Source of the DNA: Escherichia phage BF17
Length of the DNA: 64,000 bases
Sequence record: MW822008.1
Reading direction: 5' to 3' (one strand)
Shown here: positions 12,518-36,556 of the stretch, piece after piece
How positions within the stretch are numbered: position 1 is the stretch's first letter
Layout of the letters: every line of letters begins with the position of its first letter
Notes under the pieces: generated by a model
The model's input: only the letters and a program-made list of their open reading frames with translations
Told to the model about the DNA's origin: nothing
Database searches by the model: none
Translations under genes and position numbers: made by a program

Positions 12518-12523
12518 AAAGTA

Positions 12524-12787: not shown

Positions 12788-12814
12788 TATTAATTTAATA
12801 GAGGATAACAATAA

Positions 12815-13138: not shown

Positions 13139-13144
13139 AAACTA

Positions 13145-13172: not shown

Positions 13173-13221
13173 AAGTTACATGAAGGGGAGAAATGATTCT
13201 CCCCACTGAGAGGAAAGAAAA

Positions 13222-13434
13222 ATGCAAGGTCAACTAATCGTTCGTAAATGGTCTGATACTAACGCTAAACCGTGGGATGTACAATACATCGGACCGGATG
13301 GGGTATCACGTTATCAGCCTGGCGTAACGCATAGTACTGAGCAATATGCCGCCGCTCACCGCGAACGCCTGTTAGAATCCATGAAACAGGGATACGGTGA
13401 AAAATTCATTCAAGATCATTGGCTGAAAGATTAA
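13222..13434 (+). CDS. hypothetical protein (70 aa)
   Basis: ORF track; RBS GAGAGGAAA. Confidence 0.75.
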   Translation: MQGQLIVRKWSDTNAKPWDVQYIGPDGVSRYQPGVTHSTEQYAAAHRERLLESMKQGYGEKFIQDHWLKD

Positions 13435-13451
13435 TATAAGGAGTACAGCTT

Positions 13452-13544
13452 ATGCAAATGAATCCGATGATTATTGTGTTAGCTGTACTTATGATCATTC
13501 ATGCAATAGTAAAAGTATTAACGCAATCAGGAGTAATAAAATGA
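13452..13544 (+). CDS. tiny hydrophobic single-TM peptide (30 aa)
   Basis: RBS AAGGAG 13436-13441; MQMNPMIIVLAVLMIIHAIVKVLTQSGVIK. Confidence 0.4.
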   Translation: MQMNPMIIVLAVLMIIHAIVKVLTQSGVIK

Positions 13545-13714
13545 TTCAAGTAGAATTATCAGTACTGAAAGATCTGTTTTATCGGTTAGGTACTACTGGC
13601 GAGTATCCTAAAAGTGATACCGCAAAACTTTTTGTATCACTCGACTTATGGCAACGCGAACAATTAGTAATGTCCTGGCGTAAAGGTAAAGCAGATAGCG
13701 AGGTGAAAGCATGA
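13541..13714 (+). CDS. small protein (57 aa)
   Basis: ATGA overlap with upstream stop; RBS CAGGAG. Confidence 0.45.
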   Translation: MIQVELSVLKDLFYRLGTTGEYPKSDTAKLFVSLDLWQREQLVMSWRKGKADSEVKA

Positions 13715-13860
13715 AAGAATTCTTATTCGAAGTAGTGTTTCAAGGTGTCGGTAGTAACCAACTGATTCGCTCAAGTGGTTATAATGTTAACCAGGCATGG
13801 AATAACATTAAACAAATGTACCCGAACGCTATCACCTATCGCAACCCGAAAGAAGTTTAA
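13711..13860 (+). CDS. small protein (49 aa)
   Basis: ATGA overlap with upstream stop; RBS GAGG. Confidence 0.45.
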   Translation: MKEFLFEVVFQGVGSNQLIRSSGYNVNQAWNNIKQMYPNAITYRNPKEV

Positions 13861-13873
13861 AAATATTTGAAAA

Positions 13874-13952
13874 AGGGATTGACTCCGGTCAGTCCCTTTG
13901 CTATTATATACGCATAGAAACAAATCAGCCCACAGGGTGCATAAATGTATCT
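13874..13952 (+). promoter_or_regulatory. Composite module: bidirectional terminator-like hairpin overlapping promoter plus conserved element AGCCCACAGGGTGCATAAATGTATC
   Basis: hairpin GGGATTGACtccgGTCAGTCCC 13875-13896, TTGACT 13878-13883, element 13927-13952; Chi GCTGGTGG 13960-13967 just downstream. Confidence 0.55.
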
Positions 13953-13998
13953 ATTGTTTGCTGGTGGCTAGTACTGAAAACTATTTTTAAAAAAGTAC

Positions 13999-14026
13999 TT
14001 GCATTGTACTTAGAATCAAGTATAAT
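13999..14026 (+). promoter_or_regulatory. sigma70 promoter P1 (TTGCAT-16-TATAAT)
   Basis: TTGCAT 13999-14004, TATAAT 14021-14026. Confidence 0.65.
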
Positions 14027-14030
14027 GTTT

Positions 14031-14114
14031 TACATCAGGACGGGGAACGAAACAAGTAACCCCGTTAAGTAGTCCAGGAGTAAGACATAAGAAAACCTCC
14101 CCTGATAAAATAGT
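14031..14114 (+). ncRNA. Conserved structured leader / candidate small RNA (copy 2)
   Basis: about 85% identical to 3722-3806; stem CGGGG...CCCCG one base pair shorter on both arms. Confidence 0.4.
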
Positions 14115-14142
14115 TTGACAATAGAAAGTAAACGAGTATAAT
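14115..14142 (+). promoter_or_regulatory. sigma70 promoter P2 (TTGACA-16-TATAAT)
   Basis: TTGACA 14115-14120, TATAAT 14137-14142. Confidence 0.65.
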
Positions 14143-14175
14143 ACTTACATCAACCACTGATAAGGAAACATTAAA

Positions 14176-14451
14176 ATGCGGATTCTACTGACAGCTAACG
14201 AAATCGAACAAGTACTGACTACTAACCTGGAAGACTGGAAACGTGAAGCAGATATCCAGGCGGTTCAACTGCTTAACGATAAGTTAACGCCGGATGACTT
14301 AAGCAAGATTGTAGATCCTCAATTCTACGAAGATATCCACGACACCGCGTTAAGCGTCGAGGATGTACTAGATAAGCACTACATTGATATTGATTTGCAG
14401 GTTTACGGTCGTAAAAACTTTATCACTATTCACGACATTTATAATAATTAA
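14176..14451 (+). CDS. hypothetical acidic protein (91 aa)
   Basis: ORF track; RBS AAGGAAA. Confidence 0.75.
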   Translation: MRILLTANEIEQVLTTNLEDWKREADIQAVQLLNDKLTPDDLSKIVDPQFYEDIHDTALSVEDVLDKHYIDIDLQVYGRKNFITIHDIYNN

Positions 14452-14454
14452 GTA

Positions 14455-14482
14455 TTGACAAAGTATCTTAGTACTGTATAAT
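14455..14482 (+). promoter_or_regulatory. sigma70 promoter with 5' stem-loop
   Basis: TTGACA 14455-14460, TATAAT 14477-14482, hairpin GGGGGAAtggTTCCCCTCC. Confidence 0.7.
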
Positions 14483-14537
14483 AGTTTACATCGAGAGGGG
14501 GAATGGTTCCCCTCCTAACAAAGAGAGAGAAATAAAA

Positions 14538-14720
14538 ATGGCTAAATGCACTATCTGCAAGAAAGAAATAGTATTAGTTCCAAGTGCCCGTGAACGTGCC
14601 GCTCGGTTCGGTGGCAAAGCGTCAGACTATACAAAAATGTTTACTACCCATGCAGCTTGCCAGGTAGCAAAACGTTCACAAGAAAGCGTAGAATTAATGC
14701 GTAAACTTTCCAAAAAATAA
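14538..14720 (+). CDS. small Cys-containing basic protein (60 aa; CTIC...ACQ)
   Basis: ORF track; RBS AGAGAGAGAAA. Confidence 0.7.
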   Translation: MAKCTICKKEIVLVPSARERAARFGGKASDYTKMFTTHAACQVAKRSQESVELMRKLSKK

Positions 14721-14723
14721 GTA

Positions 14724-14751
14724 TTGACAAAGTATCTTAGTACTGTATAAT
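14724..14751 (+). promoter_or_regulatory. sigma70 promoter with 5' stem-loop
   Basis: TTGACA 14724-14729, TATAAT 14746-14751. Confidence 0.7.
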
Positions 14752-14808
14752 AGTTTACATCAAGTGAGGGGAAACGGTTCCCCTCCTAACAAAGAGAGAG
14801 AAATAAAA

Positions 14809-15132
14809 ATGGCTATGATCCTTGCCCAGAAAGTAGAACTGAAAATTGTAACCTCCTTTGACATTAAAGTTAATCGGTGGACTGATTCACACGGCAATAC
14901 TTACCACTCTTGCTACGTGTCCGCGTTAATTGGCGACCGCTGGGAAGACTTGGGACATGAAACCTTTACTTACGGTTACGGTACACAAGGAGAATACACG
15001 GGCTTGGAGATCATTAAAGAAACCGTTATAGGTTTCAACCCGAAAGAAAAAGTTATTCACCGCATCGAAAAAGAGATTAACAAAGAAATAACAGTTCGCT
15101 ACTACGATGTAAAACGTAAGAAAGACATGTAA
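14809..15132 (+). CDS. hypothetical protein (107 aa); paralog of 8391..8714
   Basis: ATG 14809; track start 14764 lies in leader. Confidence 0.75.
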   Translation: MAMILAQKVELKIVTSFDIKVNRWTDSHGNTYHSCYVSALIGDRWEDLGHETFTYGYGTQGEYTGLEIIKETVIGFNPKEKVIHRIEKEINKEITVRYYDVKRKKDM

Positions 15133-15146
15133 TAGAATCCATTTAA

Positions 15147-15183
15147 AGTACTATTTGACATTGCCCAGATAGTACTTTATAAT
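15147..15183 (+). promoter_or_regulatory. Promoter TTGACA-17-TATAAT enclosed by palindrome AAGTACTAT...ATAGTACTT
   Basis: TTGACA 15155-15160, TATAAT 15178-15183; same architecture as 2783-2819. Confidence 0.65.
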
Positions 15184-15227
15184 AGACTCTAACTTGTAGT
15201 ACTAACTCAACTAATAGGATGTATACC

Positions 15228-15623
15228 ATGATTACTAAATTCTACGCTACCCGTGAAGCTGCCCGTATTGTTGCACGCGAGGAAGGAGCAGCATTTAAAG
15301 ACATGGGCAAAGATGCACCGAAAGGTCAACGCTGGGCCGTACAGTTCAAAGAAATCTCTGATATTGTGAATTCACCTGAGCCAGTACTAACAGCAGCAGA
15401 ACTAAAACGAGCGGATTTACTGGCGGCAGTACTTAACGCACAAGATGAATTTATCGCTGATTCTGATATCAAAGTACAGACAAACCATACCGCTTGGACT
15501 CACGCGGATCACCTGGCAAACCTTAAGCGTCCAAGTGAACTGGTTCGCAACCAGAAAGAGATCCGACACGACCGTAAGGGTAATCGTGTAACAGTATACA
15601 GTAAACGCCGCCAGGTTATCTAA
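15228..15623 (+). CDS. hypothetical protein (131 aa); paralog of 2856..3122
   Basis: ATG 15228 with RBS AGGA 15215-15218. Confidence 0.75.
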   Translation: MITKFYATREAARIVAREEGAAFKDMGKDAPKGQRWAVQFKEISDIVNSPEPVLTAAELKRADLLAAVLNAQDEFIADSDIKVQTNHTAWTHADHLANLKRPSELVRNQKEIRHDRKGNRVTVYSKRRQVI

Positions 15624-15643
15624 TAACTTGCAGTACTAACAAC

Positions 15644-15671
15644 ACGGCGGGATCAGTTCCCGCCTTTTTTA
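15644..15671 (+). terminator. Rho-independent terminator
   Basis: hairpin GGCGGGatcagttCCCGCC then TTTTTT. Confidence 0.75.
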
Positions 15672-15685
15672 TAGGATAAACTAAA

Positions 15686-15940
15686 ATGATTAAGGTACAA
15701 CTATCTAAAGATAATATCTTGCGGGTACACTATAAAGCACCACAGAGAATCATCACAAAGGCCGTACAGCTTGCTAATGAGTTTATTAATGGTAACCTAT
15801 TACCAAGGAAGTTAAGCAACGGAAAACTGCGTGTAATCGATGTAGACACTAACAACAGAATAGTAATTGAGAACACAGGAAAGATAAACCTATATGAACA
15901 CCAACAATATAATAAGAAAATAAAACTAATATCACGTTGA
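15686..15940 (+). CDS. hypothetical basic protein (84 aa)
   Basis: ORF track; RBS AGGA. Confidence 0.65.
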   Translation: MIKVQLSKDNILRVHYKAPQRIITKAVQLANEFINGNLLPRKLSNGKLRVIDVDTNNRIVIENTGKINLYEHQQYNKKIKLISR

Positions 15941-15965
15941 CAGTACTCAATTGTTTTAGTATTAT
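15937..15965 (+). promoter_or_regulatory. sigma70 promoter (TTGACA-17-TATTAT); duplicated cassette with 16213-16241
   Basis: TTGACA 15937-15942, TATTAT 15960-15965; leader TACACATACCAACACGGG shared. Confidence 0.6.
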
Positions 15966-15993
15966 GTACACATACCAACACGGGAGAAACAAA

Positions 15994-16212
15994 ATGAAAT
16001 TATCTAAAATCGAAAAGAAAACTATTGATGAAGCAGTTAAGCACGGTTATACCTTTCGTAATGATTCACATTTTACCAATTTTCAACAAGGCCAAAGGAC
16101 TATTAAAAAACTAATTGACAAAGGTTTATTAGTTAAAGTAGATAACGGTAACGGCATTGAGTATCAGCCAACCCAAGACGCATTATCTTTAAAGAAATAT
16201 GCAATTATCTAA
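15994..16212 (+). CDS. hypothetical protein (72 aa)
   Basis: ATG 15994; track start 15937 is the TTG of the -35. Confidence 0.7.
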   Translation: MKLSKIEKKTIDEAVKHGYTFRNDSHFTNFQQGQRTIKKLIDKGLLVKVDNGNGIEYQPTQDALSLKKYAII

Positions 16213-16241
16213 TTGACAGTACTCAAATGTTTTAGTACTAT
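16213..16241 (+). promoter_or_regulatory. sigma70 promoter (TTGACA-17-TACTAT)
   Basis: TTGACA 16213-16218, TACTAT 16236-16241. Confidence 0.6.
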
Positions 16242-16269
16242 ATGTACATACCAACACGGGGAAAACAAA

Positions 16270-16512
16270 ATGATTACTTTAGAAAAACGTATCAAAGAAA
16301 CTACATCGCTGGTGGAACTGTTAACAGTACTGAAATGCCGTACTACTCGGTTTAGTACACCGGACTTTATTAATATGGTTGATGTTAACGGTCGTTATCG
16401 CATTGCAGTAGAACATGGAACAGCGAAAGTATTCAGTACTAAAAACACTAAGGAAGTGATTCACGCGGTTAGTGTGAAAAAAGTGGTTGCCATTGATAGT
16501 AAAGTACTGTAA
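16270..16512 (+). CDS. hypothetical protein (80 aa)
   Basis: ATG 16270, RBS GGGGAAAA. Confidence 0.7.
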   Translation: MITLEKRIKETTSLVELLTVLKCRTTRFSTPDFINMVDVNGRYRIAVEHGTAKVFSTKNTKEVIHAVSVKKVVAIDSKVL

Positions 16513-16543
16513 GATAGTTTCATTAACTCAAGGAGAACATGCA

Positions 16544-17128
16544 ATGCGTAATTATACTAAATTCATCCGTACCCTGTCAGAAATGGAAACCAACAAAGAG
16601 ATCCTTTCAGCTTGTCGGTTAGCTGGTCTGGAGATCATCGGTGCGGGTTCTTCCCGTATTGTATTCGCTTTAAATGATCGGTTAGTGATTAAGGTCGCCA
16701 ATTGTGATGCGGGTGTAGAACAAAATGAAACTGAATGTAAGGTATGGAATTTTTTAGACTATGACCGCCCTCAATTGAAACAGTACTTTGCAAAGGTGCA
16801 TATGCATTTATGCGATCCTGATAATATGTTTATCGTTATGGATCGGTTGAGTACTGCAAGCAAAGGCAGTGTAAAGCACGTTAACGCGTGCAACGAATTA
16901 AAGTACAATATTAAACGTAATGCCATTGAACGCCAGCACCGCTTTGCTGATGCACTACAACACGTCGATGATACATTATCAACACTAACGATAAGAGATA
17001 TCAGAAAACAGAATATCGGCCAGGATCGTAATGGACTTATTAAAGTACTTGATTACGGTTTAACCCGCAATATCTGGAATCAGTACTATAAAAAGCGTGA
17101 TGTGGCAGCAAGTAAAGTAACACGATAA
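16544..17128 (+). CDS. putative small atypical protein kinase (194 aa) with Hanks-like catalytic motifs
   Basis: IIGAGSSRIVF (Gly-rich loop), VIKV (Lys), IRDIRKQNIG (cf. HRDxKxxN), VLDYGL (cf. DFG); ATG 16544 with RBS AAGGAG. Confidence 0.55.
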   Translation: MRNYTKFIRTLSEMETNKEILSACRLAGLEIIGAGSSRIVFALNDRLVIKVANCDAGVEQNETECKVWNFLDYDRPQLKQYFAKVHMHLCDPDNMFIVMDRLSTASKGSVKHVNACNELKYNIKRNAIERQHRFADALQHVDDTLSTLTIRDIRKQNIGQDRNGLIKVLDYGLTRNIWNQYYKKRDVAASKVTR

Positions 17129-17141
17129 AAAAGATTAAAAA

Positions 17142-17225
17142 AGGGATTGATTTCGGTCAGTCCCTTTGCTATTATATATTCATTGAGAGATAGCTCACTG
17201 ACCCACAGGGTGCATAAATGTATCT
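17142..17225 (+). promoter_or_regulatory. Composite module: terminator-like hairpin overlapping promoter plus conserved element ACCCACAGGGTGCATAAATGTATC
   Basis: hairpin GGGATTGAtttcgGTCAGTCCC 17143-17165; element 17201-17225. Confidence 0.55.
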
Positions 17226-17268
17226 ATTATATAAGTATTCAGTACTGAAAACTATTTTTAAAAAGTAC

Positions 17269-17296
17269 TTGCATTGTACTTAGAATCAAGTATAAT
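17269..17296 (+). promoter_or_regulatory. sigma70 promoter with 5' stem-loop
   Basis: TTGCAT 17269-17274, TATAAT 17291-17296. Confidence 0.7.
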
Positions 17297-17351
17297 GTTT
17301 TATATCGAGAGGGGGGGAACGGTTCTCCCTCAAAGAATAAGGAATAAAATC

Positions 17352-17573
17352 ATGACTACAATGACTTGCATTTACGCTTCCAATCTTCTGAATGATGCGG
17401 CCTTTAATGTTGATTCAGAATATCAATGTTATCGGGATGAAAATAAAAAAGTTTTTGTAGTTGATAATAATGGTTTCCATATTGAAATACAATCCGGCTT
17501 CACTGGTGTTGATGGTAAATCAGTATGGGGCGTACAGGATGATAACGGTACATATCATTTTAAACGTAATTAA
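17352..17573 (+). CDS. hypothetical protein (73 aa)
   Basis: ATG 17352, RBS AAGGAA. Confidence 0.75.
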   Translation: MTTMTCIYASNLLNDAAFNVDSEYQCYRDENKKVFVVDNNGFHIEIQSGFTGVDGKSVWGVQDDNGTYHFKRN

Positions 17574-17576
17574 GTA

Positions 17577-17604
17577 TTGACAAAGTATCTTAGTACTGTA
17601 TAAT
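17577..17604 (+). promoter_or_regulatory. sigma70 promoter with 5' stem-loop
   Basis: TTGACA 17577-17582, TATAAT 17599-17604. Confidence 0.7.
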
Positions 17605-17657
17605 AGTTTACATCAAGGGGAGAATAGTTCTCCCCGATACTAAAAGGAAACAAAATT

Positions 17658-17930
17658 ATGTCCAGCTACTCCGCTACTATGATCATTAAAGATATGAACG
17701 GTAATCCTACTTCCGCTGGTGGATCATTTGGAAACATTAATTTAGATGGTCGGTTATCCATGCAATCAGCCATCGATGCAGCGAAAGAAGTTTTTAAGAA
17801 TGAATGCACTGTAAGCAAGCTGGATTATATGGGATTCGCTATCGAGAAAACTAATCGTTTTGTGAACTACAAAAATCCACTGATGATTGATACTAACCTG
17901 AAAGCTAACGAAGTGGAATACTTATTATGA
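17658..17930 (+). CDS. hypothetical protein (90 aa)
   Basis: ORF track; RBS AAGGAAA. Confidence 0.75.
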   Translation: MSSYSATMIIKDMNGNPTSAGGSFGNINLDGRLSMQSAIDAAKEVFKNECTVSKLDYMGFAIEKTNRFVNYKNPLMIDTNLKANEVEYLL

Positions 17931-18118
17931 CAGTTGAAGAAGTTAAAAAAGTACTGGCAGTACTACGCTATCATAATCATTGCAAGGTGAAGAATGATCC
18001 TGATTATGTTGATTCATCCCTGGAGGAAGACACATTAAACGCAATAAGCCATATGCAAACATTAGCAAAGCGTATGACCGAAAAGAATAGACCGGACTAT
18101 ATCGGAAATAAAATTTAA
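17927..18118 (+). CDS. hypothetical protein (63 aa)
   Basis: ATGA start/stop overlap with 17658 gene. Confidence 0.6.
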   Translation: MTVEEVKKVLAVLRYHNHCKVKNDPDYVDSSLEEDTLNAISHMQTLAKRMTEKNRPDYIGNKI

Positions 18119-18125
18119 AAAGTAC

Positions 18126-18153
18126 TTGCATTGTAGTTAGATTAACGTATAAT
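18126..18153 (+). promoter_or_regulatory. sigma70 promoter with 5' stem-loop
   Basis: TTGCAT 18126-18131, TATAAT 18148-18153, hairpin GCGGGGGAAtagtTCTCCCGCC. Confidence 0.7.
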
Positions 18154-18204
18154 GTTTTACATAGAGCGGGGGAATAGTTCTCCCGCCAGTCCAGGAGATA
18201 CACC

Positions 18205-18468
18205 ATGAACACTATCGAAATCACTATCAATGCACACGTATACGACAACGTAGTACTGCAAACTACTATGACCGCTAACGATACCAGTACTTTGCGGAAT
18301 ACTGTTATTAGTGCCGTATGTGCCGCTATCGGTGATGTCGCCCTGGAAAATGCAAAACACGTAAACGATGGTTTCACTATGTGCAAACGTGATAACGCAA
18401 AACATATCATCGTGGAAGGTTACGGCGGTGTAGAATTTAATGTTTATATGAAAAAAGTACTTGCATAA
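18205..18468 (+). CDS. hypothetical protein (87 aa)
   Basis: ORF track; RBS CAGGAG; 3' end overlaps next promoter -35. Confidence 0.7.
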   Translation: MNTIEITINAHVYDNVVLQTTMTANDTSTLRNTVISAVCAAIGDVALENAKHVNDGFTMCKRDNAKHIIVEGYGGVEFNVYMKKVLA

Positions 18469-18488
18469 TAACTAAAACAAAGTATAAT
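18461..18488 (+). promoter_or_regulatory. sigma70 promoter with 5' stem-loop
   Basis: TTGCAT 18461-18466, TATAAT 18483-18488. Confidence 0.7.
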
Positions 18489-18535
18489 GTTTTGCATAGG
18501 GGGAGATGTCCTCCCCCACTAAAAGGAGTAATAAA

Positions 18536-18760
18536 ATGGCTAACTTTGATGAACTGATGCGGGAAGTAGCTAACCTGGCAGAAGAGAAAAAATCATTCGA
18601 TTCTATCTATAACACCTCTTACCGTGATTCAGTACTGGCATGTAACCAGGATCAAAAAGATGAACTAATCGCCACCTATCATGAAGCATGGAAGTACTAC
18701 CGACAATGGGAGAAAGAAGAAAGAGAGTCTACCATTGACGGCCTCAATAATCTAATCTAA
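18536..18760 (+). CDS. hypothetical protein (75 aa)
   Basis: ATG 18536, RBS AAAGGAG. Confidence 0.75.
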   Translation: MANFDELMREVANLAEEKKSFDSIYNTSYRDSVLACNQDQKDELIATYHEAWKYYRQWEKEERESTIDGLNNLI

Positions 18761-18773
18761 AAGTTTTATTTCA

Positions 18774-18808
18774 GTACTATTGACATAGCTTGATAGTACT
18801 GATGTAAT
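18774..18808 (+). promoter_or_regulatory. Palindromic promoter cassette (copy 5, diverged -10)
   Basis: AGTACTAT-TGACATAGCTTG-ATAGTACT; TTGACA 18780-18785. Confidence 0.6.
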
Positions 18809-18836
18809 AACTTTACTAACTACAAGGGGAAACATC

Positions 18837-19094
18837 ATGGAACAATTCACACAATATCGGGTAAATCCTCAAGCTATGGCCTACGTAGAAGACCATAAAA
18901 CGTTACCAGTACTGCAACCAGTTAAAGGCCATATCTATCGTGCAATGTCGTGGAGTACGGCCCAGGATGGCTATAAAACCGTAGCCGTTGGTATGTACTG
19001 CGGTAATGGTGAATGGTTTGATCCAAATAATCCGGTAGCCATTGACAGTACTGAAAAAATGAAATGGGCCGACTACATCGAAGATATTTCATAA
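18837..19094 (+). CDS. hypothetical protein (85 aa)
   Basis: ORF track; RBS AAGGGGAAA. Confidence 0.7.
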   Translation: MEQFTQYRVNPQAMAYVEDHKTLPVLQPVKGHIYRAMSWSTAQDGYKTVAVGMYCGNGEWFDPNNPVAIDSTEKMKWADYIEDIS

Positions 19095-19107
19095 AAAGAA
19101 TAAAAAA

Positions 19108-19187
19108 AAGGAGTTGACTTCGGTCCGCTCCTTTAGTACTATATACGCATAGAAACAAATCAGCCCACAGGGTGCATAAGTGTATCC
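19108..19187 (+). promoter_or_regulatory. Composite module: terminator-like hairpin overlapping promoter plus conserved element AGCCCACAGGGTGCATAAGTGTATC
   Basis: hairpin about 19109-19133; element 19162-19187; Chi GCTGGTGG 19222-19229 downstream. Confidence 0.55.
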
Positions 19188-19254
19188 AAAATATATAGTT
19201 AATAACGGTGAGTAACTATCTGCTGGTGGAACTAAAACTATTAATAAAAAAGTA

Positions 19255-19283
19255 TTGACAAAGTATATCAGTACTGCAATAAT
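19255..19283 (+). promoter_or_regulatory. sigma70-like promoter (TTGACA-17-AATAAT)
   Basis: TTGACA 19255-19260; GC-rich leader hairpin. Confidence 0.55.
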
Positions 19284-19336
19284 GTATCTCGTAGGGCGGC
19301 AATGGTGCGACGGCCCACAAAGTTAGGAGATTCAAA

Positions 19337-19669
19337 ATGAGTACTTCAATCGCTATCGTTAAAGCTTTCATCCGTACCAATGTTTCATCTGTATTCATCG
19401 ACGGTCTGGATCGGGAAGTAGAATACTCAATCATTATCGCACAGACTGCAAACGGTGCTCGGTATATCCTTAATGATAGTGAAGCAAATCACTACTACTT
19501 CACTAAAGCTACTGGCTTTAAACGCATCGATGCTGATGTAGTATACGCTAAGATGAATAAGCTGGTAGACAAGATTAACGCTAAAGGTACTATAGATTTA
19601 CAGTACTGGACCGAAACCGATCCAGAATATGGATCTCACCGCTACCTGAATCCAGGTATTAAAATGTAA
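19337..19669 (+). CDS. hypothetical protein (110 aa)
   Basis: ORF track; RBS AGGAG. Confidence 0.75.
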   Translation: MSTSIAIVKAFIRTNVSSVFIDGLDREVEYSIIIAQTANGARYILNDSEANHYYFTKATGFKRIDADVVYAKMNKLVDKINAKGTIDLQYWTETDPEYGSHRYLNPGIKM

Positions 19670-19676
19670 AAAGTAC

Positions 19677-19704
19677 TTGCATAGTACTTAGAATCAAGTA
19701 TAAT
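19677..19704 (+). promoter_or_regulatory. sigma70 promoter with 5' stem-loop
   Basis: TTGCAT 19677-19682, TATAAT 19699-19704, hairpin GGGGGAAatggTTCTCCCTCC. Confidence 0.7.
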
Positions 19705-21111: not shown

Positions 21112-21140
21112 TTGACATCATGCCTCACATGGGGTATGAT
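21112..21140 (+). promoter_or_regulatory. sigma70-like promoter (TTGACA-17-TATGAT) at head of family A array
   Basis: TTGACA 21112-21117, TATGAT 21135-21140. Confidence 0.6.
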
Positions 21141-21174
21141 GTTTTTTCACATATGAACCTATGGATTTTATCCT

Positions 21175-21372
21175 ATGCGTATTTTAACTAAAGAACAGCA
21201 CCACGAAAGACTTATCAATAACATGGCTATGATAATGTATAAGTCCCATGACCGTGGTATTGCCTATAAGCGTGAATTAATTATGGCACTATTCATTGGA
21301 ACTAACTTTCAGGAAAGGTATGTCAACGATTGGATTTGGTATTTAATTGAAGATATAACGAGTAAACTATGA
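21175..21372 (+). CDS. family A paralog (motif FIGTNFQE)
   Basis: ORF track; about 65 aa; conserved LGTNYQE-type core. Confidence 0.65.
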   Translation: MRILTKEQHHERLINNMAMIMYKSHDRGIAYKRELIMALFIGTNFQERYVNDWIWYLIEDITSKL

Positions 21373-21569
21373 AAATGCGTATTTTAAATAAAGAAGAATA
21401 TCAATCACTGTTACGTAAAAACTTCACAAAGATTTATAATACAGACACACACGTAGAACGAATGGAGTTATACCTTTTGATTACTTTGGGAACTAACTAT
21501 CAGGAAAGATGGGTGATTCAATATATGGATACATTGAAAAATAAAATATTGTCCACGAGGAAACAATGA
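21369..21569 (+). CDS. family A paralog (TLGTNYQE)
   Basis: ATGA overlap with upstream gene. Confidence 0.65.
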   Translation: MKMRILNKEEYQSLLRKNFTKIYNTDTHVERMELYLLITLGTNYQERWVIQYMDTLKNKILSTRKQ

Positions 21570-21775
21570 AAACTATAACACGAACCCAATCATACGGTCT
21601 TATCTTGAAATACATGGACTTAATGGTGGATATCAGCAAAGACCTTCCTAAAACTGAAATTGAAGTTGCAAGAGCAGAGATCCGCATGTTGGCTGTACTG
21701 AACACAAACCATCAGGAAGATTATGTTGAAGAATGGATTCGATTTTTAATAGAAGATATAAAGAGTAAATTATGA
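21566..21775 (+). CDS. family A paralog (VLNTNHQE)
   Basis: ATGA overlap. Confidence 0.65.
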   Translation: MKTITRTQSYGLILKYMDLMVDISKDLPKTEIEVARAEIRMLAVLNTNHQEDYVEEWIRFLIEDIKSKL

Positions 21776-21987
21776 TTATTATAGAAAACTCATATCAATA
21801 TACTGAACGCATCGCTGCCAGACAACTTGAAATCCTCATAATATACGAAGAGACTTCTGATTTAAACTTAGCCGAGGTATTGGAAAATGATATACTATTG
21901 GGTGCATTCTTAGGAACAGACTATCAGAAGTATTATGAGGAAAAGTATTTGTCATCTCTTGAGAAATATATCAGGAGCAAATTATGA
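21772..21987 (+). CDS. family A paralog (FLGTDYQK)
   Basis: ATGA overlap. Confidence 0.65.
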   Translation: MIIIENSYQYTERIAARQLEILIIYEETSDLNLAEVLENDILLGAFLGTDYQKYYEEKYLSSLEKYIRSKL

Positions 21988-22196
21988 TTTTTTTAACACC
22001 AGAAGAATATAAGAAACGTTTCAATTCCGCACAGGGTGAAATCTTACTTATATACCTTTCAAATGCAGACCTTAACTTATCAAGGGTATTAGAAAAAGAT
22101 TTACTTATGGGTGCATTCCTTGATACAGACTTTCAGGTGTATTATGTAGGGGAATACTTAATTGCACTCCAGAAATACATTAAGAGCAAACTATGA
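21984..22196 (+). CDS. family A paralog (FLDTDFQV)
   Basis: ATGA overlap. Confidence 0.65.
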   Translation: MIFLTPEEYKKRFNSAQGEILLIYLSNADLNLSRVLEKDLLMGAFLDTDFQVYYVGEYLIALQKYIKSKL

Positions 22197-22411
22197 AACA
22201 TTTAAGTAATTACGAGAAGAATAAAATTATCGTTGCTGCAATAAACAAATATTTTACACTTCCTCACACAGAAGGTTTATGTGTAAGGGAACACAGGATA
22301 AACACCACCGATATACGCATGATGGCTGTACTGGGGACGAACTTTCAGGAAGAGTATGTTGTTGCACACATAGTTGCCCTCACTGATTTAATAAGGGACA
22401 AATGCAAATGA
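22193..22411 (+). CDS. family A paralog (VLGTNFQE)
   Basis: ATGA overlap. Confidence 0.65.
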   Translation: MKHLSNYEKNKIIVAAINKYFTLPHTEGLCVREHRINTTDIRMMAVLGTNFQEEYVVAHIVALTDLIRDKCK

Positions 22412-22716
22412 AACACTTAACTGATGATGAATTTGAAACTATAATTCGTAAACTAACCCCCATCACAAGGATAGTCTACGGTGACCCCAGCCTTACATGG
22501 AACCAAATGCGAGCTAAAGTTAATGAGCTATGGTTGCTGTACTTTATGGGGACTCAATATCAAGATAAGTTTTGCACAGAATATATCGAACAATTAACGA
22601 ATGTTATACAGGATAAACTAGATGATTATTTGCTCACAAAACATGAAGATTTTATCAGGAGTGGAGTATCAGACTGCCCTCTTCTCTCTTCTAAACACCC
22701 TCCGCACGAACAATAA
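22402..22716 (+). CDS. family A paralog (FMGTQYQD) with C-terminal extension
   Basis: 104 aa; 3' end overlaps next paralog by about 74 nt. Confidence 0.55.
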   Translation: MQMKHLTDDEFETIIRKLTPITRIVYGDPSLTWNQMRAKVNELWLLYFMGTQYQDKFCTEYIEQLTNVIQDKLDDYLLTKHEDFIRSGVSDCPLLSSKHPPHEQ

Positions 22717-22894
22717 ACTTTATAATTCCCGTGAAGCTGATATCGTCAACGCTGATGTATATCTTAATAAATTCATAGGGACTAACTATCAAGAACTGTT
22801 CACTCTACGATATATCGCTGCATTGAGAAACGAAATATCAGATAAAACCCGTCAAGCCAGAAGAGAATGGAATAAACAATGCGACACAGACTAA
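22643..22894 (+). CDS. family A paralog (FIGTNYQE)
   Basis: internal ATG 22643 of ORF 22622. Confidence 0.55.
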   Translation: MKILSGVEYQTALFSLLNTLRTNNKLYNSREADIVNADVYLNKFIGTNYQELFTLRYIAALRNEISDKTRQARREWNKQCDTD

Positions 22895-23130
22895 ATCACA
22901 AAATGTATTGTAAACTATTACAGACACTGGCACAGAAACACTATGACACTGTATCTGAAATATTACCCTATGATATCATGCGTTTAATTCATAGTGAGGC
23001 AGAGATGCTTGTACTGATGACAGGCACTGATAAAAAAGCAATTGCCAAATCAATAGATATGTTCATCGAAGCACAATGTCAACACATTAGAACCGAGATA
23101 TGGAGACGAGAGAATGATAACACTAAATGA
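22879..23130 (+). CDS. family A paralog, divergent (LMTGTDKK)
   Basis: ORF track; position in array. Confidence 0.55.
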   Translation: MRHRLNHKMYCKLLQTLAQKHYDTVSEILPYDIMRLIHSEAEMLVLMTGTDKKAIAKSIDMFIEAQCQHIRTEIWRRENDNTK

Positions 23131-23329
23131 GTTTCAGTATCATTGGAGGTTACAAACTATCAAATCAAAAGTGTATAGTATTGTGTTAAACAAATCTATT
23201 GCACAAGAGGACAAATGTGTTATAATAGCTGAAATGAAGTTGGGTGCTTTCGTAGGGACAAACTATCAAAACATCTACACTGACGTATTGTTAAGTGCCT
23301 TACGTAACAAGGTGGTATCCAAAATATGA
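23114..23329 (+). CDS. family A paralog (FVGTNYQN)
   Basis: ORF track. Confidence 0.65.
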   Translation: MITLNEFQYHWRLQTIKSKVYSIVLNKSIAQEDKCVIIAEMKLGAFVGTNYQNIYTDVLLSALRNKVVSKI

Positions 23330-23544
23330 GAAATTTACAAGGCTTTGAATACATCAGACTCCTGAAAACATGCACCAGCAGAAGGAAAATCTTATCAAGC
23401 GATAAGAGCATCCAAGCTAACCTTAAGCACGCACTAGTAACTGAACTCTATGTAGGTGCACTCTTAGGCACAAACTATCAACAAATGTATGTAGATCTAT
23501 GGATTGACGCTCTACAGAAAGAGGTTAAAAGTAAATGCAAATGA
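23326..23544 (+). CDS. family A paralog (LLGTNYQQ)
   Basis: ATGA overlap. Confidence 0.65.
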   Translation: MRNLQGFEYIRLLKTCTSRRKILSSDKSIQANLKHALVTELYVGALLGTNYQQMYVDLWIDALQKEVKSKCK

Positions 23545-23753
23545 TTAATTTAAGTAAAGACGAATTTTATGTTATACTGGCGAAAACTTATCCAGCACGT
23601 AAGGCCGTTTATGATAGTCACATTATTGAACCCTCAAAGAAGTTGATTTTAGTAAATGAGATAAAGATGCTTTCAGTCTTAGGAACAAACTATCAAGAGA
23701 ATGCTGTACTGATGTTAATTGATGCCCTCCAGCGAGAGGTTAAACGTAAATGA
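23535..23753 (+). CDS. family A paralog (VLGTNYQE)
   Basis: ORF track. Confidence 0.65.
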   Translation: MQMINLSKDEFYVILAKTYPARKAVYDSHIIEPSKKLILVNEIKMLSVLGTNYQENAVLMLIDALQREVKRK

Positions 23754-23980
23754 AAATGATTAATTTAACTTACCATGAATATCAAAAACGTTTAAATGCA
23801 TCCAGAGATATAAGGATTCAAATATTCAATAACAAAAGATTGAAGCCTGATATCAGGAAAATCAAAATCATAGAAGCCGTGTTGTGCAACTTCCTAGGGA
23901 CTAACTATCAGGAAGGTAAGGTAGAAAACTATCTTATAGAACTCATGAATAGTATTGAAAATAAATGTAAGGGTAATTAA
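23750..23980 (+). CDS. family A paralog (FLGTNYQE)
   Basis: ATGA overlap. Confidence 0.65.
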   Translation: MKMINLTYHEYQKRLNASRDIRIQIFNNKRLKPDIRKIKIIEAVLCNFLGTNYQEGKVENYLIELMNSIENKCKGN

Positions 23981-23981
23981 C

Positions 23982-24221
23982 ATGAAAATGATTAAATTAT
24001 CTCAAGCAAAATATAAAGAACGCCTGGTAAAAATTGCACCTGGACTTAATGAAATCCATCACGGAGAAGTCATTAAACACGGAAATAAGATGATTATGAA
24101 ACTTGAGTTAAAGGTGGGTGCATTCATAGGAACAAACTATCAGGAGTATTATGTAGATGAATACATAATCGCACTTAAGAGATACATTGGAAGAAAACTA
24201 TATCTACAAACTAAAGAATAG
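23982..24221 (+). CDS. family A paralog (FIGTNYQE)
   Basis: internal ATG of ORF 23955; junction AAATGTAAGGGTAATTAACATG repeated at next gene. Confidence 0.6.
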   Translation: MKMIKLSQAKYKERLVKIAPGLNEIHHGEVIKHGNKMIMKLELKVGAFIGTNYQEYYVDEYIIALKRYIGRKLYLQTKE

Positions 24222-24250
24222 TATTGAAAATAAATGTAAGGGTAATTAAC

Positions 24251-24514
24251 ATGCAAATGATCAATTTAAGTAAAGATGAATATACCGAGCGTATGACAAA
24301 AATTACGCACAAACGTAATACAATCTATCACAACCCAGAAATTCAACACAGTAAGAAAATGATTATGATGCGTGAGTTAAAGATGGGTGTATTCTTAGGA
24401 ACAAACTATCAAGATACAGAAGTAAATCGCTTAATCGCGGAGTTGCTACTGGAAATCAGAGGTAAGCTGTACTTTCATCAAATGACCCAACCACTGAGGT
24501 GTACTAAGAAATGA
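24251..24514 (+). CDS. family A paralog (FLGTNYQD)
   Basis: internal ATG of ORF 24224; duplicated junction. Confidence 0.6.
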   Translation: MQMINLSKDEYTERMTKITHKRNTIYHNPEIQHSKKMIMMRELKMGVFLGTNYQDTEVNRLIAELLLEIRGKLYFHQMTQPLRCTKK

Positions 24515-24726
24515 TCAACATCACATTGCAAGAAAGATTCATCCGAATCAACTATGCAATTACCAAATTAGATGCTACTATAGGATTCCAAAGTCTACCA
24601 TACAAAACCAGATTGTTATTAGAGTGTGAAGCTAAGTTGGGTGTACTATTAGGGACGCAACACCAACAACGATATGTGGAAATCTGGATTGATCTTTTAA
24701 CCCAGGATGTACATGAGAGAATGTAA
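24511..24726 (+). CDS. family A paralog (LLGTQHQQ)
   Basis: ATGA overlap. Confidence 0.65.
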   Translation: MINITLQERFIRINYAITKLDATIGFQSLPYKTRLLLECEAKLGVLLGTQHQQRYVEIWIDLLTQDVHERM

Positions 24727-24981
24727 ATGCAAAATGAAATGATATACTTAACCTATAATGAATACGTCGAGAGATTAGTTCGTGCCAAGAGATATACCAA
24801 TAAACGTCCAATTGACCTAAACCAAACCCCTGCCGAAAGGAGTGCAGAAGTTTTATTCCAATCACTACCATACCTTCTTGGAACTGATAGACAAGAGGAA
24901 TATGTTGCACGTATGATTAGATATCTTAAAATCACTATTAAGGAAAAAGTAAATGCAAATGAAATACTTAACAGACGATGA
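24727..24981 (+). CDS. family A paralog (LLGTDRQE)
   Basis: ORF track. Confidence 0.65.
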   Translation: MQNEMIYLTYNEYVERLVRAKRYTNKRPIDLNQTPAERSAEVLFQSLPYLLGTDRQEEYVARMIRYLKITIKEKVNANEILNRR

Positions 24982-25204
24982 GTTAAAAGAACGACTAATT
25001 AAATCCAGAAAACTTACAAATCAACTTCCAAACGACACAAACAAGTCACATGCCGAAAGGAGTGCAGAAGTTTTATACATTCAACTCATGTACTTTCTTG
25101 GCACTGACAGACAAGAGTATTACATTGAAAGTATGCTTCGATATCTTAAATTCTCTATAAAGGAAAAGATACATGCTCAAGAATTTAAAAATCCTAACAG
25201 TTAA
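24953..25204 (+). CDS. family A paralog (FLGTDRQE)
   Basis: ORF track; close paralog of 24727 gene (HAERSAEVL shared). Confidence 0.65.
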   Translation: MQMKYLTDDELKERLIKSRKLTNQLPNDTNKSHAERSAEVLYIQLMYFLGTDRQEYYIESMLRYLKFSIKEKIHAQEFKNPNS

Positions 25205-25415
25205 TGAATATCATACGATTGTAATGAAAACTAATAGTGCAATTTCTAAAAAATCAAACCCCAAGTACATACTGGAACACACATTCGAAGAACGTCAATT
25301 AGCTTTAGTTGAAGCAAAACTTCTTGCACTCCTAGGAACAAACTATCAGGAAGAATACATCAGAAAACTAATATACCTTTTAACTAAACATATAAGAAAA
25401 AGAAAAAATGCATGA
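25173..25415 (+). CDS. family A paralog (LLGTNYQE)
   Basis: ORF track. Confidence 0.65.
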   Translation: MLKNLKILTVNEYHTIVMKTNSAISKKSNPKYILEHTFEERQLALVEAKLLALLGTNYQEEYIRKLIYLLTKHIRKRKNA

Positions 25416-25642
25416 AACACTTGACAGATGATGAACATGGACTTATAGTAATGGATGTAATCAACATCGAATACAAAAAGTTGATACGCTACCGTTGTTA
25501 TGAAGATAAGCAACTCGTTCTAGCAGAACAGAAGTTGTTTCGACTCTTAAACACAAACTTCCAAGCACAATACGAAGAATCGTATATGTACCTTTTGGCG
25601 AGGAAAGCAAAAAGAGATTATGAAAATTTTAAGCAAAGGTGA
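25412..25642 (+). CDS. family A paralog (LLNTNFQA)
   Basis: ATGA overlap. Confidence 0.65.
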   Translation: MKHLTDDEHGLIVMDVINIEYKKLIRYRCYEDKQLVLAEQKLFRLLNTNFQAQYEESYMYLLARKAKRDYENFKQR

Positions 25643-25841
25643 TTCAGTAATATTACTTATAGAGAGTTCAAGTAAATTCTTAAACATAACACTGTCTGAT
25701 ATAGATGAAGATGACAAAGAAGTACTGAGAGCAGATTTAAGAGTACTGTTACATATCGGAACAAACCTACAAGAAGAATATGTAGAGTGCTACATTAATG
25801 AACTTAAAGAATCAGTACTGAGAAAATGCAAATGCAAATGA
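25620..25841 (+). CDS. family A paralog (HIGTNLQE)
   Basis: ORF track. Confidence 0.65.
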   Translation: MKILSKGDSVILLIESSSKFLNITLSDIDEDDKEVLRADLRVLLHIGTNLQEEYVECYINELKESVLRKCKCK

Positions 25842-26065
25842 AAATCATTTCACCCACAGAATACAACCAACTATTAAGTAGTTTAATTCTAAAGCTGTTT
25901 ATAACAAAAAGCATGAAATTACCAGATGATGAAATAAGTATTCTAGTAAGTGAAATCTATGTTCAAGCTACACTAGGGACTAACTATCAAGAATGCAATA
26001 TTAATGATTACATCAATGAACTAAAAAGGTTTATCCAATGCAAATGCGAATCATTACCGAAGTAG
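25826..26065 (+). CDS. family A paralog (TLGTNYQE)
   Basis: ORF track. Confidence 0.65.
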   Translation: MQMQMKIISPTEYNQLLSSLILKLFITKSMKLPDDEISILVSEIYVQATLGTNYQECNINDYINELKRFIQCKCESLPK

Positions 26066-26280
26066 AATACCTAACAATCATAAATGGACTGTTTTCGAAG
26101 TTATTTGCCATTAACACATCAAAACTTCCAGATTCTGATAAAATTATTAAGTTAAATGAAATCTACGTTCAAGCTACTCTAGGAACAAACTATCAAGAAG
26201 CCAATGTGTATAATTACATTAATACACTCAAAAGGGTAATACAATTAAAATGCACAGACAGCACACACACAAACCCCTAG
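26038..26280 (+). CDS. family A paralog (TLGTNYQE)
   Basis: close paralog of 25826 gene. Confidence 0.65.
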   Translation: MQMRIITEVEYLTIINGLFSKLFAINTSKLPDSDKIIKLNEIYVQATLGTNYQEANVYNYINTLKRVIQLKCTDSTHTNP

Positions 26281-26480
26281 GAACAGCAGAATACATTGAA
26301 CTAATGGCTGCAAACTTCTCATCCTTTAAGAAACTGATGCAAGAATCAAAGAATGATTTAGAATATCACATCAAAAGTTCAGATTTAAGATTGCTACTCA
26401 CTCTAGGAACAGATTCCCAAGAGCGATTTGTCAATGAGCATATTAGAGCACTTTTAAATGGCATCAGGAATAAACTATGA
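26250..26480 (+). CDS. family A paralog (TLGTDSQE)
   Basis: ORF track. Confidence 0.6.
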   Translation: MHRQHTHKPLGTAEYIELMAANFSSFKKLMQESKNDLEYHIKSSDLRLLLTLGTDSQERFVNEHIRALLNGIRNKL

Positions 26481-26693
26481 AGGAAATATCAAATCAAGAG
26501 TACTTGGCACTATTCAGGAAGAATAATCACAAATATATGGCACTTGATTCAAGAACTGATATAAGTGAACTTGAAAAAAAATCTTTTGCGTTCAGAGATG
26601 ATAGTACTGACACTCTTAGGAACACAGCATCAAGAGAGAACTGTTAATTCACACATAGGGATTCTTATGCAGATAGTTCAGGAAAAGATATGA
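26477..26693 (+). pseudogene. family A paralog disrupted by +1 frameshift at an A8 homopolymer
   Basis: N-terminal frame MKEISNQEYLALF... stops at 26645-26647; the C-terminal ...MIVLTLLGTQHQERTVNSHIGILMQIVQEKI is in the +1 frame; A-run 26574-26581. Confidence 0.6.
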
Positions 26694-26911
26694 GAATCAT
26701 AACACAACAAGATATTCTTAAGTTCACAAGGGTTCATGCATCTGAATTTGATGCTATATTATCAAAAAGTTACAACAACCCTTATACACAAGATGTACAT
26801 TACAGTGAATTATGGATGTATATACTTTTAGGTACAAATAAGCAAGAGCAAGCCGTACAGAAGTATTTGACAGCTTTACGTGATGCTACTGCTAATGGAG
26901 TATGTGTTTAA
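26690..26911 (+). CDS. family A paralog (LLGTNKQE)
   Basis: ORF track. Confidence 0.65.
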   Translation: MRIITQQDILKFTRVHASEFDAILSKSYNNPYTQDVHYSELWMYILLGTNKQEQAVQKYLTALRDATANGVCV

Positions 26912-26912
26912 T

Positions 26913-27155
26913 ATGAAAGTACTGACAGAAATAGAAATGTATCATAGATTTAATAAGTACTATCATTTACTTAAGCCTATACAGAGGATTAAATGTCCAT
27001 TTGAAGAGAAACAGGTTTTAATCTATGAGCACAAGTTCTTTGTATCATTAGGTACAGATCAACAAGAGTACTATTTGACGTTGTACTTGATTACATTAAT
27101 AGATTTAATTCACTATAAAACCAAACAAGCTAATAAAGAGAAATATGAAAACTAA
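26913..27155 (+). CDS. family A paralog (SLGTDQQE)
   Basis: internal ATG of ORF 26880. Confidence 0.6.
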   Translation: MKVLTEIEMYHRFNKYYHLLKPIQRIKCPFEEKQVLIYEHKFFVSLGTDQQEYYLTLYLITLIDLIHYKTKQANKEKYEN

Positions 27156-27489
27156 TATACAACTCAAGGTATATAAATCATTTGAACATACATATATCAA
27201 AAGTAGTCTATGTAGAGATGTAATGGATTACAAGGGTAAGCCATTCACAATTACCTATGATTCTTATGTTAGTGATTTATATATATCATTTGTTAATTAC
27301 GAAAATAAAATATACAAGCACGTTGATATTAAAGATTTAAGTACTTTATCACCAGAGGAATACTTTCAGGAATCATTAGTATGGGATTTAGAGTTTCCTA
27401 TGCCATTAGTACATAAGATGATAGTACTAATGAAAGAATCTAAACAGGAGCCTAATGGTGATTATGAAGAACACACAGTTGAGTACTGA
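27145..27489 (+). CDS. family B paralog (PEEYFQESLVWD)
   Basis: ORF track; conserved acidic-aromatic FQ motif in C-terminal third. Confidence 0.65.
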   Translation: MKTNIQLKVYKSFEHTYIKSSLCRDVMDYKGKPFTITYDSYVSDLYISFVNYENKIYKHVDIKDLSTLSPEEYFQESLVWDLEFPMPLVHKMIVLMKESKQEPNGDYEEHTVEY

Positions 27490-27850
27490 TAATATTAAGA
27501 GTTATACAAGCTCAAGTACTGTGACAATCGAAGTGAATTCTATTAATGCTGGTAATGCAGTAGATAAGTTCTTTATTGCTCAAGGGTACAGGAAAGATAT
27601 TCATCAATATTGTTCAGTATATGGGGAGTACAATAGTACTGAAGATATAATTTATTGGTCAACACATCAAGATTATCTAACTAAAATTGGCGTTCCAGAT
27701 GTTAGTACTTTATCTGAAGAAGAATACTTTCAGTACAGCTTAGTACATGATGTACCTATACCTTTAGGGTTAATCAAGGGTATACAGGAAGAGGTTCATA
27801 AGCTTAAATCCATGAGTAAAGGTACTTTCATTAGAACAGTGCAATACTAG
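27455..27850 (+). CDS. family B paralog (EEEYFQYSLVHD)
   Basis: ORF track; RBS AGGAG. Confidence 0.65.
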   Translation: MVIMKNTQLSTDNIKSYTSSSTVTIEVNSINAGNAVDKFFIAQGYRKDIHQYCSVYGEYNSTEDIIYWSTHQDYLTKIGVPDVSTLSEEEYFQYSLVHDVPIPLGLIKGIQEEVHKLKSMSKGTFIRTVQY

Positions 27851-27851
27851 C

Positions 27852-27880
27852 TTGACAGTACTTTTCATTACTGATATAGT
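27852..27880 (+). promoter_or_regulatory. sigma70-like promoter (TTGACA-17-TATAGT)
   Basis: TTGACA 27852-27857, TATAGT 27875-27880. Confidence 0.55.
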
Positions 27881-27911
27881 ACCTGTACGTTAATCATTAG
27901 GGTAGAAAATT

Positions 27912-28157
27912 ATGTTAAATTTTTTAAATTTCCTTATCGTCTTGTGTATTGTTCTTGGGATTGCACCATTTGTATTGTATTTCATGGATTCAGATGAAAT
28001 GCAGAAGATGAATTGCACAAGGACAGGACAGAGTAGAGTAGAGACGATTCTTATGCCTGTTACGGTTATTGTTAACAACATGCCCATTACGAACATGGTC
28101 CCTACCCTAACGACAACGTACCAGTACTCTTGTGCTGACGGAGAGAGGTGGAGATGA
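27912..28157 (+). CDS. small membrane protein (81 aa) with N-terminal TM helix
   Basis: MLNFLNFLIVLCIVLGIAPFVLYF hydrophobic segment. Confidence 0.6.
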   Translation: MLNFLNFLIVLCIVLGIAPFVLYFMDSDEMQKMNCTRTGQSRVETILMPVTVIVNNMPITNMVPTLTTTYQYSCADGERWR

Positions 28158-28465
28158 AATTTAATATAGCAAAAACATCTAATATATGTATATTTGGTTA
28201 TGCCGAAGAGTTGGGTGATATTGACATTCTTTTGTACAAAAAGGATGGTGTTATGCATTTCAAGTACCAGGATGAAGAGGCAGACAATTATCTTTTACCT
28301 AATTTAGTACAAATGCAGGAAGATGAATTATTCCAGTACAGCTTAGTATACGACATTGATATTTGCACGATGCCAGTACTAATTAGTATTCAAAAAGTGA
28401 TGCTCGATATGTATGATAAGCTAATACAAGGTATGTCAGGGAGGATCATTGAAATTGACATATAA
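28148..28465 (+). CDS. family B paralog (EDELFQYSLVYD)
   Basis: ORF track. Confidence 0.65.
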   Translation: MEMKFNIAKTSNICIFGYAEELGDIDILLYKKDGVMHFKYQDEEADNYLLPNLVQMQEDELFQYSLVYDIDICTMPVLISIQKVMLDMYDKLIQGMSGRIIEIDI

Positions 28466-28661
28466 GAATATACCTAATGCATATGAAATGAAGTACAGGG
28501 AGTTTATTAAAAATGTACACACCGATCCTTTTAATATCAAAATATCAGATTTTGATGTATTATTTTATCTAGGGACAATAGCACAGGATCAATGCGTTGA
28601 TAAGCTCATATGGTCCTTGAAAATGGAGATACAATGCAGACCCAAATATATAAAAAGGTAG
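28449..28661 (+). CDS. family A-like paralog (YLGTIAQD)
   Basis: ORF track. Confidence 0.55.
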   Translation: MKLTYKNIPNAYEMKYREFIKNVHTDPFNIKISDFDVLFYLGTIAQDQCVDKLIWSLKMEIQCRPKYIKR

Positions 28662-28897
28662 ATTCTTTATTGTACGCTTCAAAGTACAGGGATTTTTGTT
28701 TACGAGGGGGAGAGGAAGATTTCTCTCTGAGATTATCTGAATTTAATATGTTATTTTATCTTGGTACAAAAGATCAAGAAGATACAGTACAGAAATTTAT
28801 CAAGCACCTTGAACAAAAAATTCATATGCAAATTTTTATGCTTAAGGTACATAATGAGATAAACAAATATGAACCCAACAATAGTACAGGATCTTAA
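28634..28897 (+). CDS. family A-like paralog (YLGTKDQE)
   Basis: internal ATG of ORF 28610. Confidence 0.55.
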   Translation: MQTQIYKKVDSLLYASKYRDFCLRGGEEDFSLRLSEFNMLFYLGTKDQEDTVQKFIKHLEQKIHMQIFMLKVHNEINKYEPNNSTGS

Positions 28898-36400: not shown

Positions 36401-36556
36401 TTCCGCTGAAAAACATGCTAAGGTATATGTTTAATATAAAGTTTTATATTGTGTTTTTTCAGAGTACAGTTCATGTTTCTTGAAACAAAAAATACCCCGC
36501 CGCCGAACGTTCTCCTTATATTGGAGTTTACCTTATTAATTATAGTAGAGATTAAG

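Follow-up and report, generated by a model that had tools for sequence, protein, structure and literature searches.

An eight-A tract divides one PHROG 4148 paralog between two reading frames in an Asteriusvirus genome

One member of a large group of tandem paralogs belonging to PHROG 4148 is divided between two reading frames at a run of eight As in the window, as the whole stretch of 64,000 nucleotides analyzed here is called. The split is a deterministic fact of the sequence and not a statistical one. The extra A is absent from every sampled relative and, therefore, the gene is either a young pseudogene or the result of a sequencing error, not a case of programmed recoding. The explanation placed first, which has about an even chance of being right, is a non-programmed expansion of the tract from A7 to A8, private to this genome and produced by very recent replication slippage, that would have turned this copy into a young pseudogene. 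A feature of this kind is already known. It amounts either to a commonplace homopolymer frameshift that hits a single, apparently dispensable paralog or to an error in the consensus, and on its own it matters little. In the annotation of the genome, the gene calls for a pseudogene or frameshift label, or for a new check against the reads.

The split gene and its ortholog in related phages

Megablast against 50,697 phage records places the window in Asteriusvirus, a group of Escherichia coli jumbo phages of about 350 kb, in relation to PBECO4, 121Q, and slurp01. The best relatives are 95-98% identical over 25 kb, and the relationship is mosaic.

The homopolymer, AAAAAAAA, lies on the plus strand at 26574-26581, in the codon context CTT GAA AAA AAA TCT. 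Upstream of it, residues 1-34 of the frame-0 ORF correspond to the N-terminal half of the family and are identical to the ortholog in slurp01, JP4, and PBECO4. The frame switches after codon 34, by way of a one-nucleotide insertion in an A7 tract, and what follows is a 22-aa out-of-frame tail ending at a premature TAA (26645-26647). The conserved C-terminal half is found instead in the +1 frame, which encodes ...MIVLTLLGTQHQERTVNSHIGILMQIVQEKI (peptide SEMIVLTLLGTQHQER) and ends at a TGA (26691-26693); the nucleotides of this half are also identical in slurp01, JP4, and PBECO4. The first-pass annotation had given these same positions for the tract and for both stop codons, all of them correctly, and had proposed that the removal of one A restores a full-length paralog. 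This proposal holds as well, because the relatives with A7 encode an uninterrupted protein of 71 aa; the window minus one A yields a 71-aa protein identical to that of phages slurp01, JP4, and PBECO4.

The two pieces belong together also by homology. In a profile search within the window, frame 0 aligns with family positions 1-35, the +1 frame with 32-70, and in the paralog alignment the two pieces cover complementary halves. The gene is a member of PHROG 4148 by its full-length profile match and its LGTxxQ core: the restored 71-aa protein fits the PHROG 4148 profile end to end (E=1e-18, positions 1-71 of 74), and the motif is present in the +1-frame half as LLGTQHQ. An alignment of 30 family sequences shows conservation of at least 90% at T49, Q52, and L63. 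It differs from the rest of the family in that the copy in the window is divided between two frames. The coordinates of the split gene and its surroundings are collected in Table 1.

Table 1. Coordinates of the split gene, its tract, its neighbors, and the array that contains them
Feature	Coordinates	Strand	Remarks
Tandem array of 26 PHROG 4148 paralogs, including the split gene	21157-27155	+	Jackhmmer on the window's ORFs, alignment, and PHROG scan
Upstream paralog, 76 aa	26250-26480	+	Stop overlaps the start of the split gene (ATGA, 26477-26480)
Frame-0 ORF of the split gene, 56 aa	26477-26647	+	ATG start; TAA stop
A8 homopolymer, site of the one-base expansion	26574-26581	+	Relatives carry A7 (GAA AAA AAT, read as E K N) or CAGAAAAA
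C-terminal half in the +1 frame, NLLRSEMIVLTLLGTQHQERTVNSHIGILMQIVQEKI	26580-26693	+	TGA stop; near-invariant LGTxxQ motif of the family
Downstream paralog, 73 aa	26690-26911	+	PHROG 4148, E=3e-22; its ATG and the stop of the restored gene overlap (ATGA, 26690-26693)

The same ortholog is intact nearly everywhere else. Among about 41 related genomes and contigs, drawn from phage records, metagenome contigs, and NCBI assemblies, none carries A8; about 39 of them have an intact ORF with either A7 or CAGAAAAA, while one low-quality record has A6 and another an in-frame stop. Aligned relatives numbered 14, of which ten hold A7 within an intact ORF of 216 nt (71 aa) and three hold CAGAAAAA, where Q replaces E and the tract is interrupted with the ORF remaining intact. 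The A6 tract, accompanied by a second 1-nt deletion in the same ortholog, is that of CMSTMSU (MH494197.1, locus L006, 967-1180), a record flagged UNVERIFIED_ORG. The in-frame stop, a TAA in place of GAG, is found in the ortholog of TH47 (MT446416.1, locus L012, 740-955), also flagged UNVERIFIED. When the intact protein was searched with tblastn in 33 phage records, it was recovered as a single in-frame piece in 32 of them, CMSTMSU alone being split.

Pattern scans tolerating any tract length, run over viral, metagenome, and genome collections, added three metagenome contigs, all with A7 and an intact ORF, and the same state is found in seven further NCBI assemblies that contain the phage. No independent assembly with A8 was recovered by these scans or by megablast against E. 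coli genomes and plasmids, which returned only relatives with A7, and a look-up of the exact 56-aa and 42-aa products of the window gave no record. The median pairwise dN/dS of the ortholog is 0.38 (39 pairs), that is, it evolves under purifying selection, which points to the intact gene as the ancestral and functional state and to A8 as either an artefact or a very recent change found in this genome alone.

Mutation or consensus error

The immediate surroundings of the tract bear on both of these possibilities. Over 1401 bp (25800-27200) the window is identical to slurp01 except for one base; the relatives are one base shorter, and the alignment puts the extra base of the window in the A tract. 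A flank identical but for this single base suggests that the A8 event, if it took place, is recent. A consensus error would look the same, namely an identical flank with one homopolymer indel, and the consensus sequence alone does not separate a real mutation from a homopolymer error. An over-call of the homopolymer in the consensus, with the real phage carrying A7 and an intact 71-aa gene, is a serious contender, whose probability falls somewhat short of even. In its favor count the fact that one base is the sole difference from slurp01 over that stretch, the absence of A8 from the relatives, and the nature of the other homopolymer differences private to the window: G7 at 60129 and T6 at 36454 are, like A8, +1 expansions where the sequence does not differ in any other way. 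The A6 that the UNVERIFIED-flagged CMSTMSU record shows at the same tract, whether miscounted or mutated, suggests that the tract is error-prone in sequencing too.

The rest of the window speaks against a generally poor consensus. It holds no ambiguous bases, and the two other long A tracts in coding sequence, A8 at 50554 and A9 at 63506, lie within intact ORFs and do not differ in length from those of the relatives. A tblastn scan for frame splits with 326 ORFs of slurp01 and JP4 found the split gene to be the only coding homopolymer frameshift in the 64 kb. Two further frame splits, at 7446-7776 and 1083-1305, were considered as coding frameshifts and not counted, because they fall in unannotated or repeat-rich DNA that is probably non-coding. 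In a leave-one-out comparison of 374 tracts in five genomes, private homopolymer differences numbered two in the window, none in slurp01, one in JP4, two in PBECO4, and two in UB. The two of the window are A8 at 26574 and G7 at 60129, both of them +1 changes at long tracts. Thus, no excess of private homopolymer errors or of coding frameshifts was detected across the 64 kb and the 374 tracts. A signature of over-calling had been considered when a comparison of three genomes gave four window-specific +1 expansions, but it was discarded since the window is not an outlier in the five-genome test.

Apart from the split gene, the variable tracts are all intergenic, and comprise spacers between a Shine-Dalgarno sequence and the ATG, a promoter motif, and a hairpin. 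The G7 tract occupies 60129-60135 inside CCCCTGCGGGGGGG, in intergenic DNA, and is G6 in at least 16 otherwise identical relatives; the T6 tract, at 36454-36459, is likewise intergenic and is T5 in the best relatives.

The reading as a young pseudogene takes the eighth A to be a real base rather than a base-calling error. Its most likely cause would be replication slippage on a slippage-prone A7 tract. Ribosomes starting at 26477 would then read E-K-K, continue through the 22 out-of-frame residues, and stop at 26645, so that the product would be a 56-aa protein lacking the conserved LGTxxQ half, with little or no full-length protein expected. This truncated product is probably inactive. The consequences may extend to the next gene. 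In the A8 version translation would end 43 nt upstream of the next ATG, which would remove the ATGA overlap between the neighboring members. Any coupling of termination and reinitiation to the gene at 26690-26911 would presumably be lost with it, and the translation of that gene may be modestly reduced.

The loss of one copy would presumably be tolerated, since the array is highly redundant and its copy number varies. Cues for the dispensability of single copies are the presence of about 30 paralogs in the window, the variation of their number between genomes, and the in-frame stop of TH47 in the same ortholog. A gene of this kind resembles the homopolymer frameshift pseudogenes and 'savior indel' sites of bacterial and phage genomes, products of non-programmed replication slippage at A/T runs (Baranov et al., 2005, PMC1088944). 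In both, an A run that has changed in length by a single base divides an ORF which close relatives have in one piece, the flanks are unchanged, and runs of this type are known to be prone to replication slippage as well as to sequencing error. Nothing sets the split gene apart from them except its location in a tandem array of about 30 paralogs in a jumbo phage.

Slippage, recoding, and phase variation

Of the three options raised for this gene in the first-pass annotation (pseudogene, sequencing error, or slippage-dependent expression), the pseudogene and the sequencing error both stand, while slippage-dependent expression is not supported. The description of the break given there, a one-nucleotide insertion at the A tract, is right. 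In the latter, the gene would be functional at a reduced or regulated level, its frame being restored at the A8 by slippage of the RNA polymerase (-1 nt or +2 nt) or of the ribosome (+1 or -2 on AAA AAA). The probability of this is very small. Two points speak for it: a +1 shift would take the tRNA-Lys from AAA at 26576-26578 to an equally well paired AAA at 26577-26579, giving the wild-type ...ELEKNLL..., and a run of eight As has been proposed to allow productive slippage in some bacteria (PMC1088944). Such a re-pairing appears sterically possible on this sequence, although nothing suggests that it would occur above background level.

Against it stands, in the first place, the lack of conservation. 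The split arrangement is conserved in none of the approximately 41 relatives, and in the three relatives with CAGAAAAA the tract is broken with no effect on the ORF. The surroundings of the tract also lack signals of recoding: the RNA downstream of and around it folds no better than shuffled sequence (z of 0.15 and 0.27), an Rfam scan gave no match, an upstream Shine-Dalgarno-like element is absent, and the tract is followed by a sense codon, UCU, instead of a stop. The A8 run is also shorter than the nine or more A/T that efficient slippage typically takes in bacteria, and 9 nt is likewise the length at which selection against A/T runs is typically evident (PMC1088944).

The direction of the shift is a further obstacle. 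Since the downstream frame is +1, the event needed is a 1-nt deletion, which in this case would have to be made on poly(A) by the host RNA polymerase; Asteriusviruses are thought to transcribe with the host enzyme together with a phage sigma factor (PMC11895373). Reporter assays of the E. coli RNA polymerase showed no activity on runs shorter than eight As, and rescue through a deletion was undetectable on every poly(A) run tested (PMC6260861). Programmed or slippage-dependent expression is, therefore, unsupported, as there is no structure, no Rfam match, no conserved split, and no published deletion rescue, and rescue by slippage of either the polymerase or the ribosome should be negligible.

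The comparison with known systems leads in the same direction. In programmed transcriptional slippage, as in the A9 of Thermus thermophilus dnaX or the A9/T9 fusions of ORFs in IS elements (PMC1088944), an A run also joins two overlapping frames that encode one homologous protein. However, the run in the split gene is A8 instead of at least nine, its split is conserved in no homolog, it needs a deletion on poly(A) of the kind undetected with the E. coli RNA polymerase (PMC6260861), and it has no evident alternative functional product. Programmed ribosomal frameshifting in E. coli, either +1 in prfB or -1 in dnaX (A AAA AAG), shares with it a slippery stretch of lysine codons on which the tRNA-Lys can re-pair. 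Contrary to these cases, the split gene would need a +1 or -2 shift rather than -1, has no stop codon in the A site, and lacks an upstream Shine-Dalgarno-like stimulator, a downstream hairpin (z close to 0), and conservation.

The tract could also be imagined as a contingency switch, where flips between A6, A7, and A8 in phage populations turn this paralog on and off. More broadly, it might be a hypermutable switch, or a 'savior indel' rescued by slippage, that varies the dosage or the on-off state of individual PHROG 4148 members, the A6, A7, and A8 alleles being its states. Three tract lengths do exist among the sampled genomes, most of which have A7, whereas CMSTMSU has A6 and the window A8. 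Yet, A6 and A8 were each seen in a single case among about 42 genomes, respectively the low-quality record and the window itself, so that the off state is limited to two genomes, one of them flagged UNVERIFIED and with a second indel in the gene. Moreover, seven As make a short tract for a contingency locus, the ORF is still intact in three lineages where the tract is gone, and no other member of the array has a comparable tract-dependent split. A switch of either form is the most improbable of the readings considered here, and even jointly functional slippage and phase variation have only a slim chance of being correct.

The PHROG 4148 array and other features of the window

The young pseudogene, if it is one, shows that single members of the large PHROG 4148 array of Asteriusvirus can be lost. 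The array itself, with about 30 copies and a confidently predicted four-helix fold, is a more interesting object than the frameshift. A Jackhmmer search of the window's ORFs recovered about 30 PHROG 4148 paralogs, of which the split gene is the only divided one; every other array member is full length in a single frame. These paralogs, of approximately 70-90 aa, are located at 21157-27155, 28425-28897, and 42076-42469, and 26 of them are arranged head-to-tail, the stop codon of one overlapping the start codon of the next. For the member at 26690-26893, AlphaFold predicts four helices with a pLDDT of 97.4, and the comparison of this model with the PDB gave no informative match. Genomes differ in their number of copies: in E9.1, SHEFM2K, and 121Q, a single gene takes the place of the two found in the window at 25826-26065 and 26038-26280.

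Directly after the array lies a second small family of paralogs (27145-28465), consisting of three genes of 114, 131, and 105 aa that hold a common EEYFQxSLVxD-like motif and correspond to PHROG 13866 according to the annotation of SHEFM2K. Near-consensus sigma-70-like sites are found just upstream of the first array member (21112-21140, TTGACA-17-TATGAT) and just after this second family (27852-27880, TTGACA-17-TATAGT, with an extended -10 TG). These two sites may be the bounds of one transcription unit. A promoter and terminator scan of the array as a whole gave nothing above shuffled sequence.

A scan of the whole window found no tRNA genes. Its first part, from approximately 1 to 2400 (for example, 1083-1305), is rich in repeats, with recurring CAGTACTGA...TTTTGGGCGTAA units, and is probably non-coding; small CDSs are annotated there in JP4 and none in slurp01, and, compared with these two phages, the window contains one more C, at 1176.

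Asteriusvirus contigs of 275-353 kb, with WGS-style accessions, are also present in NCBI assemblies outside the phage collection: GCA_014816185.1, GCA_029944565.1, GCA_029580395.1, GCA_014686905.1, GCA_029942545.1, GCA_958305445.1, and GCA_008273105.1 (loci L024 and L027-L032). These may have been co-assembled with bacterial isolates, as in a carrier state, or may be unlabelled phage genomes.

Finally, the motif AAAAAGTACTTG occurs at 21 sites with at most one mismatch, where 0.74 would be expected, and is a candidate early-promoter element of the phage. The sites extend from 1665 to 19679, 20 of the 21 on the plus strand, and most of them fall in the gaps that separate small genes over the first 20 kb (for example, at 3121, 3680, 4483, 7460, 10386, 13990, and 18117). 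The length of the A run inside the motif differs between genomes.
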